Assembly: GCA_963840785.1 (NCBI GenBank)
Contig: CAWJAF010000003.1
Span: 430,125-494,124, forward strand
Source of the DNA: an uncultured Pseudomonadota bacterium
GTDB lineage: Bacteria; Pseudomonadota; Gammaproteobacteria; Burkholderiales; JALYOK01
Length of the DNA: 64,000 nucleotides
Direction of reading: 5' to 3'
Positions within the stretch are counted from its first letter, which is position 1. Every line of letters begins with the position of its first letter. Of the stretch, positions 3,481-30,439 are shown one piece after another. Position numbers and translations under genes: made by a program. The notes under the pieces were generated by a model. That model saw only the letters and a list, made by a program, of their open reading frames with translations, was not told where the DNA came from and made no database searches.

Positions 3481-3643
3481 CTCCAGCGATGACTCATTTT
3501 ACGGTAAGTCTTGGGCGCCAGTGACGAGAATTTTAGTTGCTCAAGGATCGTGTTGTCCGGGATTTAGAGCGCGTAGATCAGCGCCCAAGAAATAGGCCGG
3601 AGAACCGCACCAATAGGCGATCTCCGACCAATTACGAGCTTGA

Positions 3644-24836: not shown

Positions 24837-25603
24837 ATGCCCCAGGACAAACTATCTATGCGCAAAATACGAGACGTACTGCGATACCGCCACAGCACCG
24901 ACCTGAGCCTGTCGGCCATTGCTCGGGCGTTGAACATTTCCAAAGGCGTCGTCGCCAAATACCTCAAGTTATCGGCCGAAGCCGGCTTAGGCTGGCCGTT
25001 GCCCGAGGATTTAGATGACGCCGCCCTTGAGAAGCGCCTATACCAACAACCGACGGCCCGCGTGCCCACGTTTGTCGAACCCGACTACGCCGACGTTCAT
25101 CAGGAACTCAAACGCAAAGGCGTGACCCTGATCCTGCTGTGGGAAGAGTATCGCCAAGGCGCCGGTGATCGCGCGTATCAATACACCGCGTTCTGCACTC
25201 ACTATCGAACCTGGGCTGGCCAGCTCAAACGGTCGATGCGCCAGATTCATCGCGCTGGCGAGAAGTTGTTTGCCGACTATGCCGGTCCGAGCGTCCCGAT
25301 CATCAATGCGGATACCGGGGAAATCCGCCCGGCCAGCATCTTCGTCGCCGTATTGGGCGCATCCAGCTATACCTTTGCTTGCGCCACGACTGGCCAGACG
25401 CAAGCCGATTGGCTAAGTGCACTGGAACGCGCACTGATCTACATCGGCGGCGTCACCGCGCTGATTGTGCCGGACAATCCCCGGGCCTTAGTCACGCACG
25501 CCAACCGTTATGAACCCGAGCTGAATCGAGCCACAGCGGAGTTTGCCGCCCATTACCGCACCGTGATCTTGCCTGCGCGCCCGAGAAAGCCGCAGGACAA
25601 AGC
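24837..25603 (+). pseudogene. istA: istA transposase, 5' part
   Basis: HTH, DYAG, VPDN, RPRKPQDKA, then interrupted. Confidence 0.93.
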
Positions 25604-25610
25604 GTACACT

Positions 25611-27689
25611 TCATAATGCACCTTGTGTAGTTAATGGAACGGCGATAAAAACGGGATACTTTGGTTGACGGCCTCCCTTGCCTTTGACCAACATAACGTT
25701 GCCCACCGGCTCATAGAGACAGCGGTGTTGGTTGCCGTACCGATGTTCGTGCAAGAAGCCGGCATGACCCCATTGATAAATGGTTGTTGGGCACACCGCC
25801 AGTTGATCGGCGAGTTCACGTGCAGACAGCATGCCACGTTCGCGCAAGCGTTCAAAACGGCTCTTCAAATGATACGCCAAGCGAATTACAACGACCTTCT
25901 TAACCGTAAATGACTGCCCGCGCCAATTCTTGTAGCCCTGCTCGTTGAGTTGCTGCGCAACTTGGCGATCGGTACACGTCTCAAGCAGTTCGTCGACCGT
26001 TTTGACCACCGCTGACGGCGTTTTGCGGATCAATGCGATCGGCCTGGGTTTATCGATTTCCAGCGATGCCGTACGTCCGCCGCGAAAGCGCACGTGAATG
26101 GCGATTCGTTCCGCTTTGACCAAGGTCACATCGTCGATCAACAACGCCAGCATACGCTTGCGTTCGACGGACGCGACGCGCTCGTCGTGCCACACACGCG
26201 GGAAATCCTCGGCAAGTTGGCGGATCCGCGCACGCGCATCCTCGCCCAACAACGTCTGATCGGCCTGTTGCAGGCGTTCATGTTCCTGTTGTAATGAATC
26301 AAGCTGGCGAAGGCGTTCGTTCCAGTCGGACTCCAAGGAATCGGCGACCAGCCGGTTGGCGGGGTCCACGCTCATGTAGCGGCGGCGCGCGAGCTCGGCG
26401 TCATAGCGTGCCCGGATCAACTGGGTCGCGCGTTGTGCGCTGGACTGCTCGATGCGACCGGCGATCTCGTCCTCGACCGCCAGCGCCACTTCAATCGCCG
26501 CCGGGGCAACATTCTCCAGCAGCAGTGCACTCACGGCCTGGTCAATGGCGTGGCCGCGCATTGACTGGCACGGCTTATCGGCGCGCCGCACCGCGTTCTC
26601 GGTGCACATGTAGTACGGTTCCAGTTTGTCCGCCACCGCTTGATAACGCACCCGCATGCGTGCGCCGCACAAACCGCATACGACGCGTCCTTGCAATAGG
26701 CCCACGCCTTCACGCGGCATGCTGCCGCGATGACCCAGACCAAATCCGTTGGCATTGTGCGTGAGCGTAGTCTGGTTGCGTTCAAACTCTTCCCATCCGA
26801 TATAACCGGGGTGGGCATCGCGGATCAGCACCAACCAATCTTCGCGAGCGACTTTGAGCGTCGTGTGTTTGTTGGCGCGATGGACACCGCGGGTCCGTCC
26901 GTAGGCGAAGGCGCCTGCATAGCGCGGGTTGTGCAAGATTTGCACGGTACGACAATGCTCCAATGGCCCCCAGAGCACATCACCCTTGCCAATGCCGCGT
27001 CGAATCCGGCGCGGAAACAGCCAGCCTTCGCGACGAAACCGTTTGACCGTGGCGGTGGCTGACGTGCACTGACGGAAGGTGTCGAACAGCAACTGCACGG
27101 CCGCGCGAATCGATTGATCCGGATCGAGCACGACCGATCTATCCAAATGGTAAGCCAGACCGATCGGCAGCGGCACCTCCAATTCGCCGCGGCGGGCCTT
27201 ATTGCGCATGCCCCCTTGCAAGCGCGCCTTGAGCACATGCAGTTCGGCTTCGCTCATCGCGCCTTTCAAGCCGAGCAACAGCCGGTCGTTGAAATACGCC
27301 GGATCGTAGACGCCGTCTTCATCCAGAATCAAGGTTTGCGTCAATGCCGACAGCTCCAGTAAGCGGTGCCAATCGGCATTGTTGCGGGCCAGGCGCGATA
27401 CCTCCAGGCCCAGCACGATACCGGCATGGCCGTTGGCCACTTCCGATACCAAACGCTGAAATCCGTCCCGATCCTGGGCGCTGGCACCCGACAACCCCAA
27501 ATCACTGTCGATGACGTGGATGCGCTCGATCGGCCATCCCATCGACACCGCACGATCGCGTAACGCGTATTGTCGCTTAGTGCTTTCAGTGTTCTCGAGT
27601 ACCTGGCGCAATGAGGACTGGCGGACGTAGAGAAATGCATCGCGTCGAAGATGATCGGCGGTTACCTTCTGGAATCGATCAGCAGACAT
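25611..27689 (-). CDS. Large serine recombinase (resolvase, recombinase and zinc-ribbon domains)
   Basis: YVRQSS catalytic Ser, DLGLSG, VSRLARN, NPRYAG, CGLCG zinc ribbon, coiled coil. Confidence 0.95.
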   Translation of the reverse strand: MSADRFQKVTADHLRRDAFLYVRQSSLRQVLENTESTKRQYALRDRAVSMGWPIERIHVIDSDLGLSGASAQDRDGFQRLVSEVANGHAGIVLGLEVSRLARNNADWHRLLELSALTQTLILDEDGVYDPAYFNDRLLLGLKGAMSEAELHVLKARLQGGMRNKARRGELEVPLPIGLAYHLDRSVVLDPDQSIRAAVQLLFDTFRQCTSATATVKRFRREGWLFPRRIRRGIGKGDVLWGPLEHCRTVQILHNPRYAGAFAYGRTRGVHRANKHTTLKVAREDWLVLIRDAHPGYIGWEEFERNQTTLTHNANGFGLGHRGSMPREGVGLLQGRVVCGLCGARMRVRYQAVADKLEPYYMCTENAVRRADKPCQSMRGHAIDQAVSALLLENVAPAAIEVALAVEDEIAGRIEQSSAQRATQLIRARYDAELARRRYMSVDPANRLVADSLESDWNERLRQLDSLQQEHERLQQADQTLLGEDARARIRQLAEDFPRVWHDERVASVERKRMLALLIDDVTLVKAERIAIHVRFRGGRTASLEIDKPRPIALIRKTPSAVVKTVDELLETCTDRQVAQQLNEQGYKNWRGQSFTVKKVVVIRLAYHLKSRFERLRERGMLSARELADQLAVCPTTIYQWGHAGFLHEHRYGNQHRCLYEPVGNVMLVKGKGGRQPKYPVFIAVPLTTQGAL

Positions 27690-27961
27690 GGGTGAGCTCC
27701 GAATGGGTATGCAACACGAGATTGGCGATCAGGCGGACGAACTCGCTATCGCGACCGGGCACTGGGTGGGCGGGAACCGGCGAGTTCGTGCGGCGGGGCG
27801 GCCGGCGGGTTGAGCAACATCGCCAGTCCTTGCCACATGCCGTGGAACCGAAGCGCCGTTAATTCTTCGCGGCCGCCTTGCCCGAGCAGGCATGCTGAGC
27901 GCAAGGCTTCGTAGCGCGCTACGGCGTCGGACGACCGGCACGCTGGAACCGTTTCTTCTAC
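27679..27961 (-). CDS. Small accessory protein of the LSR element (frameshift near 27770)
   Basis: ARYEALR...GMWQGL continuing in another frame as DSEFVRLIANLVL...THVC*, overlapping the LSR start. Confidence 0.5.
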
Positions 27962-28410
27962 GGTTTTTTTTTGCGCGCGATCGCGCGTTCGATACTGCGA
28001 GGGTGAACTGACAGACCCCATGTGGATTCGATCTCGTGCGCCAACGCGCGCGCAGGAATCGATCCATCGCTTGGTAGTCGCTGTTCGATAAAGTGCATGA
28101 GCGCGTCGGTGAGTTTGTGCGCCCCTTTGGGGCCGCGTTGCTTGGGCAATAGACCGGCGAGCCCCTCGCGGGCGAATGCCGCTTCGGCCTGATACAAGGT
28201 GGGACGCGATAGGCCAAATAGGAAGGCCGCATCGGCTTTGGAGGCGCCGTCGATACGCACGTGGCGCAGCATTTCGTACTTCGTCTGCAGCAAATCGTGG
28301 GCATCGAAGAACTCGCCCGATTGAAACCACGGTGCGCGAACCCGCTTGGGTTGCGCATTGAGTAATCCTTGGCGGCGTAAGCGTTCGAGCTTGGGATCCG
28401 GTTTCGTCAC
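27958..28410 (-). CDS. Helix-turn-helix protein of the LSR element
   Basis: FFDAHDLLQTKYEMLR, FGLSRPTLYQ, GLLPKQRGPKGAHKL, VHPRSIER. Confidence 0.85.
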   Translation of the reverse strand: MTKPDPKLERLRRQGLLNAQPKRVRAPWFQSGEFFDAHDLLQTKYEMLRHVRIDGASKADAAFLFGLSRPTLYQAEAAFAREGLAGLLPKQRGPKGAHKLTDALMHFIEQRLPSDGSIPARALAHEIESTWGLSVHPRSIERAIARKKKP

Positions 28411-28441
28411 GCTGACGATTCCTGCGGTAGCGATGTAATAC

Positions 28442-28470
28442 TAAATACGCCGCACAATAAGAAATGTCAA
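28442..28470 (-). promoter_or_regulatory. Sigma70-like promoter for the HTH-small ORF-LSR operon
   Basis: Minus strand TTGACA-17 nt-TATTTA upstream of the HTH gene. Confidence 0.6.
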
Positions 28471-28586
28471 GATAAATAATTGTTTCATTTATCGAGATCA
28501 ATCGTACAGTTACAGCGAAACGCAAGAGCAGAAGAGCAATGTGCGCAATACAAGCGGCAAAGTTATCTTTACAAATGCGGCATAAT

Positions 28587-28877
28587 TTATTTAACATCCC
28601 GGCCTCCGCTCAGCTCATCGATCAGCGCACACAATCGACGCAAATCATCGGTGCGAAAGCAAGACCGACCGGCCGACGCCTGCGCAAACAGATCCCACTC
28701 GGGAACATCGGTCCACGATGCCAATATCGAGCACAGGCGCTCATTTGCGTCGTAGTACATGACCCGATCCTCGCCCCAATTCTGGCGGCGCGTCATGAGT
28801 ACGAAACGCTGTCCTCGCTTGGGATGGAATGGATGGGTGATCTCAAACGTAGGGATTATCGATGTACTGCTGTCCAC
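28587..28877 (-). CDS. DUF5372 (Y4bD-like) protein; real start probably formed only in the circular form
   Basis: ITHPFHP..G..F, WGEDRV, SWTD, FR..DL..L motifs. Confidence 0.75.
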
Positions 28878-28908
28878 ATGACAGGCAGTTGATGACTTGC
28901 GAGAAAGC

Positions 28909-29686
28909 CAAAGTCGAGTCGGGCGTGCAAGTGGTGGAACGCTGGATTCTGGCGCGACTGCGTCATTGGCAATTCTTCTCGGTGGCCGAACTGGACGCCG
29001 CCGTGGCGCAACTCCTGCCGGCGCTGAACGAGCGCGCGTTCAAGAAACTGCCCGGTAGTCGATGCGACGCCTTTGCCCGGCTCGATGCACCGTACCTGCG
29101 CCCGTTACCTGCTACCCGGTTTGTTCTAGCCGATTGGAAACGTGCAACCGTCAACATCGACTACCACGTCGAATTCGATGACCACTATTACAGCGTGCCT
29201 CACGCACTGGTGCGCCAGGAAGTGGAATTGCGCATTACGCGCGGCACCATCGAGATCCTTGCCCGTGGCCGTCGCATCACCAGCCATGCGCGCAGCTACC
29301 ACAAAGGCACCTTCTCAACGATTCCCGAACATATGCCGGCCGCACACCGAGCACACGCTCAGTGGTCGCCCGGCAAATTGATGAATTGGGCGGCTACGGT
29401 GGGCCCGGCGACGGGTGAATTGGTAAAGCGATTGCTTATCGAGAAGCAACACCCCGAGCAAGGTTACCGATCGTGCCTCGGGTTGATGCGGCTGGCACGA
29501 ACCTACGGTCGCGAACGTATGGAAGCCGCCTGTACGCGCGCGCTGACCATTGGTACGCATCGCTATCGCTCGGTGGCCTCGATTTTAAAGAAAGGGCTGG
29601 ATCGCCAGCCCATCATTCCGCCGGCGCAAGCCGAACTGCCTTTACCGAGCCACGCCAATGTGCGCGGTCCGGATTATTACCACTAA
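28909..29686 (+). pseudogene. istA: istA transposase, 3' part
   Basis: [37 protein letters not shown]. Confidence 0.93.
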
Positions 29687-29704
29687 CCCAAGGAGAGACT
29701 CACG

Positions 29705-30439
29705 ATGTTGATCGAACAAACGTTACAAACCTTAAAAGCATTACGCTTGCCCGGCATGGCTACGGCATTCGAGGAGCAGCAGACCGTCGCAGCTTCAGCG
29801 AGCCTGTCGTTCGATGAACGCTTCGCGATGTTGGTCGACCGGGAATTAACCTGGCGCGATAATCGCCGCCTCGCCCGCTTGCTGCGTGAGGCGAAACTCA
29901 AATCATCGCAAGCGTGTGTGGAAGATATTCGTTATGGCGGCAAACGTAAATTGGATAAAGGGCTGATGGCGCAGTTGGCCAGTTGCCAATGGATTCGGGC
30001 GCATCAGAATGTGATCCTCACCGGCGCAACGGGCTGCGGTAAAACGTGGCTGGCGTGCGCACTGGGTAACGCGGCGTGTCGTCAGGGATTATCGGTTGCC
30101 TATGTGCGCACGCCGCGTTTGTTTGAGGAACTGCGGATCGCGCATGGCGATGGTAGCTTCGGCAAGCGTCTGGTGAGTTTGGCCAAGACGGATCTGTTGA
30201 TTCTCGACGATTGGGGCTTGGCGCCGCTCAACCAGGGCGAACGTAATGATTTGTTGGAGGTGCTCGATGATCGTGTCGGTACGCGTTCGACGCTGATTAC
30301 CAGCCAACTGGCGGTGAGCAACTGGCATGTGTACTTGAACGATCCGACGTTGGCCGATGCGATCCTGGATCGCGTGCTGCATGCAGCGCATAAAGTGCCG
30401 CTCTCGGGCGAATCGCAACGCAAGCCGGAAACGCTGTAA
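29705..30439 (+). CDS. istB: IstB AAA+ helper ATPase
   Basis: [23 protein letters not shown]. Confidence 0.95.

Follow-up and report, generated by a model that had tools for sequence, protein, structure and literature searches.

The question raised by this locus is how the DUF5372 gene of an integrated mobile element, which appears to lack a translation start, could be expressed, and whether it is made whole only when the ends of the element are joined in a circle. The element was found in a 64,000 nt window (the whole stretch of DNA analysed; positions 430,125-494,124 of contig CAWJAF010000003.1, assembly GCA_963840785.1, from an uncultured Pseudomonadota), where it occupies positions 25599-28903 (3305 bp) and interrupts the istA gene of an IS21 element (Table 1). 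The first-pass annotation had placed AAAGC at both junctions, a promoter at 28442-28470, a DUF5372 open reading frame (ORF) at 28587-28877 that opens with a GTG without an evident ribosome-binding site, and, at the opposite end, an ATG that overlaps the stop codon of the large serine recombinase (LSR) gene and follows an AAGGTG motif. Inspection of the sequence confirmed each of these. Copies of AAAGC stand at 25599-25603 and 28904-28908; the two hexamers of the promoter are read on the minus strand with a 17 nt spacing; the GTG called as the start of the DUF5372 ORF (minus strand) has no Shine-Dalgarno-like motif; and the LSR TGA (25611-25613) overlaps the ATG (25612-25614), which is preceded by AAGGTG (25619-25624, minus strand) and a 4-nt spacer.

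Table 1. Coordinates, in the window, of the element, its attachment site and the interrupted target.
Feature	Position	Strand	Basis
IS21-family istA, N-terminal part (interrupted target)	24837..25598	+	ORF; weak rve match, 30.7 bits, below the 32.6-bit cut-off; empty-site contigs join 25598 to 28904
Crossover dinucleotide, LSR-side junction (AA on plus strand, TT on gene strand)	25599..25600	.	
P arm of attP: last LSR codons, AAGGTG (25619-25624), ATG (25612-25614), junction-ORF codons 2-5	25601..25626	-	
Large serine recombinase, 692 aa	25611..27689	-	Pfam Resolvase, Recombinase, Zn_ribbon_recom
A9 run (27964-27972) at end of HTH gene, then startless ORF2 in -1 frame	27746..27972	-	
HTH protein, 150 aa, first operon gene	27958..28410	-	Pfam HTH_28, HTH_23
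Promoter-like TTGACA, 17 nt, TATTTA, upstream of HTH gene	28442..28470	-	Read from sequence; entirely within element
DUF5372 gene body, codon 6 to stop; residues 22-99 = PF17342 domain	28587..28904	-	
P' arm of attP, also coding DUF5372 codons 6-14	28878..28903	-	
Crossover dinucleotide, DUF5372-side junction	28904..28905	.	Sequence and empty-site contigs
istA C-terminal part (to 29686; starts with K-A-K-V-E codons) and istB (29705-30439)	28906..30439	+	ORFs; Mu-transpos_C_2

The ends of the element are fixed independently by contigs that carry the empty site. Contigs from four sequencing runs were searched, and in three of them (X1, X2 and X6) position 25598 is joined to 28904, with 3305 bases skipped and a 5-base overlap. 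These contigs are IS21 relatives whose flank is about 91% identical to that of the window. The empty site is exact and there is no target duplication beyond the shared central dinucleotide, which is indicative of conservative insertion. Runs X1 and X2 also contain a copy of the element that is 98.6% identical and occupies a different IS21-type site. The genome of the window holds one copy only. The first-pass statement that the element has no terminal inverted repeats holds only loosely, as the two attP arms share a partial dyad (positions 3-6, 8, 15 and 17-19 from the centre), which is what is expected of LSR half-sites. P-arm positions 20-25, which carry the AAGGTG motif, are 87-100% conserved, and their mirror positions in the P' arm 48-74%.

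By its domain content this is an LSR element: the recombinase scores above the cut-offs of PF00239, PF07508 and PF13408, and the alignment has an invariant Ser at position 25. The structure model of the recombinase places a coiled coil at residues 379-517, as a long helical hairpin within the zinc domain, and a C-terminal helical extension at 559-643. Against NCBIfam, the HTH protein gives weak matches to IS630 and IS481 transposase N-termini. ORF2 is frameshifted in the window copy, which may be inactive, and the X1 and X2 contigs carry a 1-base difference at position 27789. The promoter was missed by a consensus scanner because the scanner demands T at the last position of the -10 hexamer. 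Both hexamers of this promoter, the only good one, lie inside the element, so that it is not a circle-junction promoter; the junction carries a ribosome-binding site and a start codon in place of one.

The DUF5372 domain is complete in the window (97.4 bits, cut-off 25; the match spans positions 1-78 of the 78 in the profile), and its frame is open upstream through the junction without a start codon. The ATG at the LSR end lies 14 nt before the crossover dinucleotide and the DUF5372 body begins right after the opposite crossover. When the ends were joined by script, the 14-residue extension read by the first-pass annotation was reproduced in frame with DUF5372, giving a 110-aa ORF, and the other two frames stopped at codon 0 and codon 24. 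A frame match in one copy has a 1-in-3 chance of arising at random, and the first-pass annotation had accordingly named conservation of the frame among homologues as its key test, with random frames counting against it.

The frame proved to be conserved. An end-finding rule that is blind to frame was run on 168 loci, of which 74 lacked an end on their contig, nine had at least one end that the rule missed and 85 had both ends. Among the 85, 83 join in frame to give ORFs of 100-132 aa with a DUF5372 domain and with 65 distinct N-termini. The two out-of-frame loci were rejected as real exceptions, their ends having been mis-called; an earlier, hand-guided pass had given 53 of 53 in frame. Thus attP lies within an ORF in a fixed phase at 83 of 85 loci, the crossover always falling between codon position 3 and position 1, and the dinucleotide common to both ends is TT in 82 of the 83 in-frame loci and TG in one. 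The linker falls into at least four length classes (65, 59, 56 and 53 nt) that differ by multiples of 3, and varies at all three codon positions, yet no stop or frameshift interrupts it at these 83 loci, while the other frames stop early. On these comparative data the frame match in the window is not due to chance. The split layout is found in Alpha-, Beta- and Gammaproteobacteria and in Actinomycetota, and probably also in Chloroflexota; distant clades that share it include IS66-targeting rhizobial elements and elements of Bradyrhizobium, Cupriavidus pMTS2, Rhodococcus and Streptomyces. No description of this layout was found in the literature.

The junction ORF has an ATG or GTG at codon 1 or 2 in all 23 non-redundant lineages. 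The motif before the start varies (AAGGTG, GGAGA, AGGAGG and GAGGTG) and remains Shine-Dalgarno-like. Of the 83 in-frame loci, 73 have a start that overlaps the LSR stop; the other 10 have it 11 or 18 nt beyond that stop, or 8 nt ahead of an automatically called one. In Rhodococcus it lies 46 nt past the LSR stop. The distance from start to crossover is 14 nt throughout, even where the start is 4-46 nt beyond the LSR stop. In the integrated state no canonical start precedes the invariant THPFHP motif in 20 of the 23 lineages, in keeping with the first-pass view of a gene that is startless when integrated; the other three, the window included, have an in-frame GTG without a Shine-Dalgarno motif, which could serve in that state. 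The flanking DNA supplies a chance start in only four of the 23. Gene callers disagree on where the gene begins, with lengths of 56-128 aa, and DUF5372 coding sequences at NCBI start with GTG, TTG or non-canonical codons, some of which might work. Diversity within the DUF5372 domain is 0.27, 0.21 and 0.53 at codon positions 1, 2 and 3, which shows that the gene is under selection. No such periodicity is seen in the first ∼24 codons; therefore the extension is not conserved as a peptide, and att-site DNA can account for the conservation of codons 1-14.

Circular forms were sought in assembled data. The joined-ends pattern had no match in metagenome contigs or in viral contigs, and the LSR 3' end was directly upstream of DUF5372 at none of 80 metagenome loci and none of 80 genome loci, in assemblies that show rare circles poorly.

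The structure model of DUF5372 comprises five strands and two helices (pLDDT 77), arranged as a small SH3/KOW-like barrel with helices. Comparison of this fold with the PDB gave no significant match (best E 0.013), the sequence matched no solved protein, and DNA-binding families were absent from its profile matches. Models of the complex between the LSR and DUF5372 scored 0.72, 0.71 and 0.72, compared with 0.00 for the best of three controls; the mark applied to such scores is reached by 58 of 80 solved complexes and by two of 110 mismatched pairs. The runs share at least 74% of contacts, with a partner pLDDT of 70. The predicted LSR contacts (residues 337-342, 393-412, 481-522 and 532-540) fall, on the LSR model, in the zinc ribbon, a DBD2 strand and the part of the coiled coil proximal to DBD2. 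Those of DUF5372 include the invariant HPFHP motif, and its most conserved residues are at the predicted interface. The modelling suggests that DUF5372 docks on the LSR where the zinc domain (DBD2) meets the coiled coil (CC), the site of the recombination directionality factors (RDFs). Going by the available portion of PMC12286644, each verified RDF examined has a predicted binding site at the DBD2-CC junction, and known binders at this site promote excision and inhibit integration. The directionality-factor role that the first-pass annotation had suggested for DUF5372 gains in silico support from the predicted interface.

Taken together, the reading that we favour, with a fair degree of confidence, is that the gene is split by its own element and that DUF5372 is a partner of the LSR, forming an integration-competent complex in the circle. 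The element is a site-specific LSR unit of transposon-like kind, and its anatomy, its exact ends and the conserved arrangement are shown by the data above. Its attP is placed inside the 5' end of the DUF5372 gene and separates codon 5 from codon 6. In the integrated form the far end holds the Shine-Dalgarno motif, the start and codons 1-5, overlapping or just past the LSR stop, and the near end holds the startless body, with the internal promoter downstream of it. The two parts would be brought together by excision (attL x attR), and integration would separate them again. In the circle the operon would run promoter-HTH-(ORF2)-LSR-DUF5372, with DUF5372 last and, in most lineages, in an ATGA overlap with the LSR that would couple their translation; roughly one DUF5372 would then be made per LSR. 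As DUF5372 is predicted to sit at the RDF site, it would set the direction of the reaction by the physical state of the element. The LSR-DUF5372 complex would be the integration-competent form, overriding an excision-prone default that possibly stems from the LSR C-terminal extension or from the HTH and ORF2 products. This direction was chosen because no other reading yields a self-contained cycle in which integration comes after excision. It is opposite to that of the known binders at the same LSR site, as described in the available part of PMC12286644.

The split gene could also encode a canonical RDF made only from circles, which would block re-integration and excise other copies in trans, in a burst of positive feedback, with integration following upon dilution. 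The predicted binding site is indeed that of known RDFs (PMC12286644 and PMC5814800, in the sections seen), and many genomes and plasmids are multi-copy, with four places each on pBPHY02 and pNGR234a, which would permit action in trans. However, the factor would be missing at the first excision, a 3.3-kb circle that does not replicate is at risk of loss if it inhibits its own integration, and the genome of the window has a single copy. We regard this alternative as rather unlikely. The chances are slim that the product of the split gene instead serves the circle chiefly in transcriptional or copy-control feedback, for instance by switching off the operon, rather than as a cofactor of the LSR. 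Transcription from the internal promoter could run around the molecule, where a brake would be useful, and an SH3/KOW-like barrel with helices and no significant PDB match fits such a role; against this, the complex model passes where the controls score 0.00, the most conserved residues are at the interface and no DNA-binding family is matched.

Slightly less probable still is that integrated copies make DUF5372 from a start that is weak, internal or non-canonical, the continuity of the frame being a by-product of att-site DNA and of the C-terminal codons of the LSR. The lack of codon-level constraint in the extension would fit, as would the GTG found 13 codons before THPFHP in the window and in one other locus (L007), and the P arm extends as far as the Shine-Dalgarno-like motif, which in most lineages also falls in LSR codons. 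These points are outweighed by the 20 of 23 lineages without a canonical start before a motif that is invariant and at the modelled interface. Moreover, a start signal 4-46 nt outside the LSR ORF still keeps its 14 nt from the crossover, the conservation of AAGGTG is not mirrored in the P' arm, and the linker, variable at every codon position, stays open in 83 of 85 loci in a single frame.

The family also has a target preference. In 68 of 69 reconstructed sites the insertion is at the catalytic-Glu codons of a DDE transposase gene, and likewise in 68 of 69 the crossover dinucleotide supplies bases 1 and 2 of a codon for K or N; in IS21-, IS3- and IS481-like transposases the preference is for the conserved [K/N]-x-x-x-E codons. 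A broader proposal, which we advance tentatively and hold to be somewhat less than an even bet, is that element topology sets the direction of the LSR, with integration dismantling and excision rebuilding the gene of an integration-licensing cofactor so that the state is sensed without a regulator, and that the whole family is a dedicated hyperparasite of catalytic-glutamate codons in the DDE transposase genes of several IS families.

State-dependent expression created by the joining of ends has precedents in Tn4451/Tn4453 (TnpX), ICEclc (Pcirc) and ICEKp1 (P3'end); Tn4451 is also an LSR element, and its circle-junction promoter was reportedly described by Lyras and Rood in 2000. Those junctions assemble or reposition a promoter for the recombinase, whereas this element has an internal promoter that is intact in either state, assembles a coding sequence with its ribosome-binding site, and gates a product other than the recombinase. 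The junction promoters of ICEclc and ICEKp1 are discussed in the accessible part of PMC13023037. In the SSV-type integrases of archaeal viruses and plasmids (PMC7253208, excerpt) the attachment site likewise lies in an ORF of the element and the gene is whole only in the circle, but it is the gene of the tyrosine integrase that is split; in the present element the serine recombinase stays intact and an accessory partner is cut after codon 5, which essentially removes its translation start. With the RDFs of phage LSRs (phiC31 gp3 and the SPbeta RDF among others; PMC12286644 and PMC5814800, in part) DUF5372 shares being a small element-encoded protein that is predicted at the DBD2-coiled-coil junction, adding a strand to DBD2. 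It differs in having no sequence or fold match to any solved protein, and in that RDF genes are expressed from the integrated prophage and drive excision, whereas DUF5372 is startless there. The resemblance to y4bA-y4bD of Sinorhizobium fredii NGR234 suggested by the first-pass annotation is upheld: y4bA-y4bD and y4pH-y4pK belong to the same family, in the order DUF5372, HTH, small ORF, LSR, and NCBI names the relatives 'Y4bD/Y4pK family'. The family occupies four places on pNGR234a and shows the same split layout there, with no canonical start before the motif, but the start context is GTG then ATG, the linker is shorter by two codons and, in the copy examined, the LSR is frameshifted. A search for literature on these genes found no paper.

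These findings would give the Pfam family DUF5372 a concrete function and would explain the odd annotation of its members, with starts that yield 56-128 aa. Besides junction promoters and split integrases, the joining of a start to the body of a recombinase partner would be a third mode by which mobile elements read their own state. If the partner sets direction, LSR-DUF5372 pairs would be compact, self-resetting directionality modules, of interest to genome engineering with serine integrases, where control of direction is limiting. The target preference describes a mobile element that resides within other mobile elements and inactivates them, which is relevant to the dynamics of IS elements in soil and rhizosphere bacteria rich in plasmids.

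The element is a four-gene unit that interrupts an istA gene of the IS21 family; the N-terminal part of istA runs to 25598 and the C-terminal part starts at 28906, followed by istB. No further copy of either the element or IS21 was found in the window's genome, and because of this single-copy state the element ends were set from related loci and from contigs carrying empty sites. Contigs of four public sequencing runs were compared over 25450-29050. Runs X1, X2 and X6 include contigs, from IS21 relatives without the element, that join 25598 straight to 28904, with 3305 bases skipped and a 5-base overlap. Runs X1 and X2, which belong to one study, hold both this empty IS21 site and, elsewhere, a copy of the element that is 98.6% identical to that of the window (36 differences in 2527 bases). 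The flanks of this copy differ from the window's and also code for a transposase-type K-G-I-V-E stretch (an IS21-type site). The presence of a near-identical copy between different flanks indicates that the element has moved recently.

Coordinates of the element and its genes in the window
Feature	Position	Strand	Remarks
Four-gene unit	25599-28905	minus	order DUF5372, HTH, small ORF, LSR
DUF5372	28877-28587	minus	PF17342, 97 bits
HTH protein	28410-27958	minus	ORF and domain search
Small ORF (ORF2)	27746-27963	minus	startless; frame other than that of the HTH gene
Large serine recombinase (LSR), 692 aa	27689-25611	minus	resolvase, recombinase and zinc-ribbon domains

The first-pass annotation had proposed that the DUF5372 gene is completed only when the element is excised and circularized, and the sequence features on which this rests were all recovered. 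AAAGC is present at both junctions. The LSR stop codon TGA (25613-25611) overlaps an ATG (25614-25612), the gene strand reading AAGGTG, four bases and ATGA, and ten bases past the stop lies a TT (25600-25599) that recurs at 28905-28904. At the DUF5372 end the frame is open from this second TT, and the first start codon is a GTG at 28877 that has no Shine-Dalgarno sequence, as had been claimed. Scripted joining of the two ends produced a 110-aa ORF with the very N-terminal extension that had been predicted. The promoter named in the first-pass annotation was absent from the list returned by a promoter scan, which gave a weak site inside the 5' region of DUF5372 that is unable to express the whole domain.

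The key question was whether this frame is conserved. Loci were collected from genomes (80, one genome per species), metagenomes (80) and plasmids (10). The order DUF5372, HTH, LSR on one strand is kept wherever more than one of these genes is visible, the exceptions being two plasmid variants, one without an HTH gene and one with a DUF6788 gene in its place. When aligned, the left ends consist of variable flank, TT and a conserved arm with ACTG 15-18 bases in, and the right ends of a Shine-Dalgarno-like motif, a start codon, 11 bases, TT and variable flank. Ends were then located by a frame-blind rule. On the LSR side it looks close to the LSR stop for a start codon that follows a Shine-Dalgarno-like motif, and takes the dinucleotide 14 bases on; on the DUF5372 side it searches upstream of the domain for an AACTGC-like hexamer that has this dinucleotide 13 bases ahead of it. 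Of 168 loci examined in this way, 74 lacked one end on the contig, in nine both ends were not found and 85 yielded both ends. The ends of 83 of these 85 join in frame, which bears out the predicted conservation and gives an uninterrupted ORF of 100-132 aa with the DUF5372 domain. The 83 loci carry 65 distinct N-termini, start with ATG (57) or GTG (26), and have TT as crossover in 82 cases and TG in one. An earlier, hand-guided pass had found 53 of 53 in frame, and the two alternative frames ran into a stop within 0-43 codons.

The two failures, L132, where a distant GTG candidate was taken, and L170, where the out-of-frame TT of two was taken, are in frame when read by hand (L170 via the K-G-K-V-E codons of its target), and are still scored as failures. 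Among the nine loci in which both ends were not found, L017 and L117 have an ATG at codon 2 with a CTG ahead, L024 has an odd right end, the left end of L027, L029 and L075 is degenerate or replaced, and the contig of L048 stops too early. L113 (approximately 3600-3640) has changes in both the usual ATG and the LSR stop, so that its LSR reads into the flank; an ATG lies at codon 4 of the same junction frame. The ninth, L087, has a divergent P' arm, as the DUF5372-side half of the joined site is termed here.

This last locus and several others depart from the common layout. L087 (4453-6870; plasmid of Ca. Chlorohelix, Chloroflexota) has DUF5372 31 bases upstream of the LSR and no HTH gene, and a strong start signal (AGGAGGTG + ATG) lies 24 bases past the LSR stop, adjoining an ISL3 transposase gene. 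Hand reading gives an in-frame join at one candidate TT, which is insecure given how divergent the arm is. In L089 (4489-7370; Cupriavidus pMTS2) the DUF6788 gene replaces the HTH gene; having no THPFHP anchor under the rule, it was filed as having no LSR end or anchor, and when read by hand its ends appear to share GG and join in frame. L019 (2627-9321) holds two back-to-back copies in opposite orientation, each forming one flank of the other. Two rhizobial elements sit in IS66 tnpB with the layout of the main set. The distant clade of L086 (3831-7994) and L090 has this same split layout; in it DUF5372 is approximately 33% identical, NCBI annotates no DUF5372 gene, and the target is an IS66-family tnpB and not a DDE transposase. 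Homology of DUF5372 to IS66 TnpB, raised by two plasmid matches labelled 'tnpB', was rejected, as tnpB is the gene that the distant element interrupts.

Of the 83 in-frame loci, 73 have a start codon that overlaps the LSR stop. The other ten have it 11 or 18 bases past the stop, or 8 bases upstream of the stop as called automatically; in each it is 14 bases before the crossover and behind a purine-rich GAGGTG, AGGAGG or GGAGA. Plasmid elements of distant clades from Bradyrhizobium (start 4 bases past the LSR stop), Rhodococcus (46 bases past) and Streptomyces (an overlapping GTG, then ATG) behave like the main set. In the P arm, the LSR-side half, conservation of the AAGGTG block is 87-100%, as against 48-74% at the mirror positions of the P' arm. 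Recognition of the half-site by the recombinase is therefore insufficient on its own to explain this block.

The reverse side of this arrangement was examined in a non-redundant set of 23 lineages at <92% LSR identity. In twenty of these, the stretch from the crossover to the invariant THPFHP is free of ATG, GTG and TTG. The other three have a GTG without a Shine-Dalgarno sequence, 13 codons before THPFHP in the window and L007 and one codon before it in L008, and a chance start in the flank is present in four lineages only. The missing start explains why predicted lengths range from 56 to 128 aa, through read-in from the flank or internal Met starts, and why NCBI annotates a non-canonical start codon for the NGR234 copy. 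In that copy (L005, 4995-5258, pNGR234a) the annotated CDS begins at an ATA codon; its LSR is spread over three frames and is probably a pseudogene. Within the DUF5372 domain, diversity is 0.27 at first, 0.21 at second and 0.53 at third codon positions, which indicates purifying selection. A selected gene that assemblies show only in a form lacking a start requires some other configuration for its translation.

Codon-position periodicity is absent from the first ~24 codons of the junction ORF (0.26/0.20/0.31, 0.28/0.35/0.28 and 0.52/0.42/0.47 for three segments), and the N-terminal extension is thus unusable as coding evidence. Codons 1-14 are under constraint as part of the att-site DNA, and the linker changes freely. 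Across the junction, conservation extends to the start signal and its spacing from the crossover, to the phase, and to a frame free of stops and frameshifts. The extension looks like the donor of a translation start and not like a functional peptide.

Circles themselves were also sought. A degenerate joined-ends pattern gave no matches in metagenome contigs and none in viral contigs, and no circularly permuted contig was present among the 80 genome or 80 metagenome loci. Contigs of ~3.3 kb (L018, L026, L032, L048, L072 and L134) were considered as circles and rejected, being collapsed repeats that end at the crossover. That public assemblies yielded no circle junction does not speak against circles.

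The target is a conserved transposase motif. Reconstruction gave 69 distinct empty sites. In 68 of them the AA of the crossover opens a Lys or Asn codon, and four codons further on is a Glu codon, presumably that of the catalytic residue of the transposase. The element is always antisense to the target gene. The stretches concerned are 25590-25604 and 28900-28915 in the window, and the related loci are L004-L170. Most sites have the context L-P-A-R-P-x-x-P-x-D-K-[AG]-K-V-E of IS21 IstA; others have N-G-M-A-E-S-F, which we take to be an IS3-like transposase, or P-Q-A-K-G-R-V-E-R, which we take to be IS481-like. Within the element, 99 of 115 loci have nine consecutive A at the end of the HTH gene (window 27964-27972, minus strand), and 109 of the 115 have 7-9. 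Next comes a startless ORF that extends as far as the LSR start, using the -1 frame in 61 loci and the +1 frame in 20, a pattern that suggests an HTH-ORF2 fusion by programmed frameshifting or transcriptional slippage. The ORF2 of the window is broken, its conserved C-terminal part being out of frame with its beginning (~27780-27790). The near-identical X1 and X2 copies have one base fewer at 27789, and so the window copy seems to contain a frameshift or an assembly error.

PF17342 is sparse, occurring in seven of 401 genomes sampled across the phylum, the window's genome included. It is the sole Pfam family for DUF5372 at E <= 10, and no NCBIfam model matches DUF5372 or ORF2. In its model (pLDDT 77), DUF5372 forms a barrel of five strands and, at the C terminus, two helices, residues 1-12 being disordered. 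A fold search of the PDB with this model gave no match at E <= 0.001, the best being SH3/KOW-like barrels (E 0.013-0.1). Complex prediction with LSR, using 23-row alignments of each protein made for this analysis, scored 0.72, 0.71 and 0.72, and the best of three controls scored 0.00. Of 80 solved complexes 58 reach this mark, as do 2 of 110 mismatched pairs, counts that are a rough guide here because the alignments were our own. At least 74% of contacts are shared between runs (partner pLDDT 70). Predicted contacts on LSR are 337-342, 393-412, 481-522 and 532-540, which in the LSR model correspond to the zinc ribbon, the DBD2-proximal coiled-coil helices (379-440 and 483-517) and a DBD2 strand. 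Those on DUF5372 include HPFHP and a strand-like stretch, 79-85, paired with LSR 535-539.

This predicted surface bears on what DUF5372 may do. According to PMC12286644, the verified directionality factors (RDFs) examined there are all predicted to bind the DBD2-CC junction, most add a strand to DBD2, and C-terminal extensions of LSRs may block the RDF site. In the LSR of the window, residues 559-643 form an extension of this kind, which gives a weak match to an excisionase-type HTH. Literature searches found no paper on DUF5372 and nothing relevant on the NGR234 genes y4bA, y4bD, y4pK and y4pH. Nor was the arrangement met in searches that combined serine recombinases with circular forms, IS21/istA and directionality factors. 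These searches covered article text, and the predicted-RDF table of PMC12286644 might list a relative. The nearest known logics are the SSV-type integrases, which split their own integrase gene on integration (PMC7253208), circle-junction promoters, including that of the LSR TnpX, and ICEclc and ICEKp1. The window element differs from all of these in the thing that is assembled and in the gene that is gated.

The anatomy of the element, its ends and the conservation of its arrangement can be read directly from the loci. Excision would generate a circle with the operon order promoter, HTH, ORF2, LSR, DUF5372, in which translation of DUF5372 would be coupled to that of LSR; integration would remove the DUF5372 start and place its body upstream of the promoter. 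We further infer that DUF5372 is a directionality cofactor of LSR. A strong rival reading is that it is a canonical RDF, the class of protein predicted to bind at the DBD2-CC junction. However, a canonical RDF made only after excision would be unable to start the cycle and would hinder re-integration. For this reason the reverse logic is favoured, namely that DUF5372, made in the circle, licenses integration.
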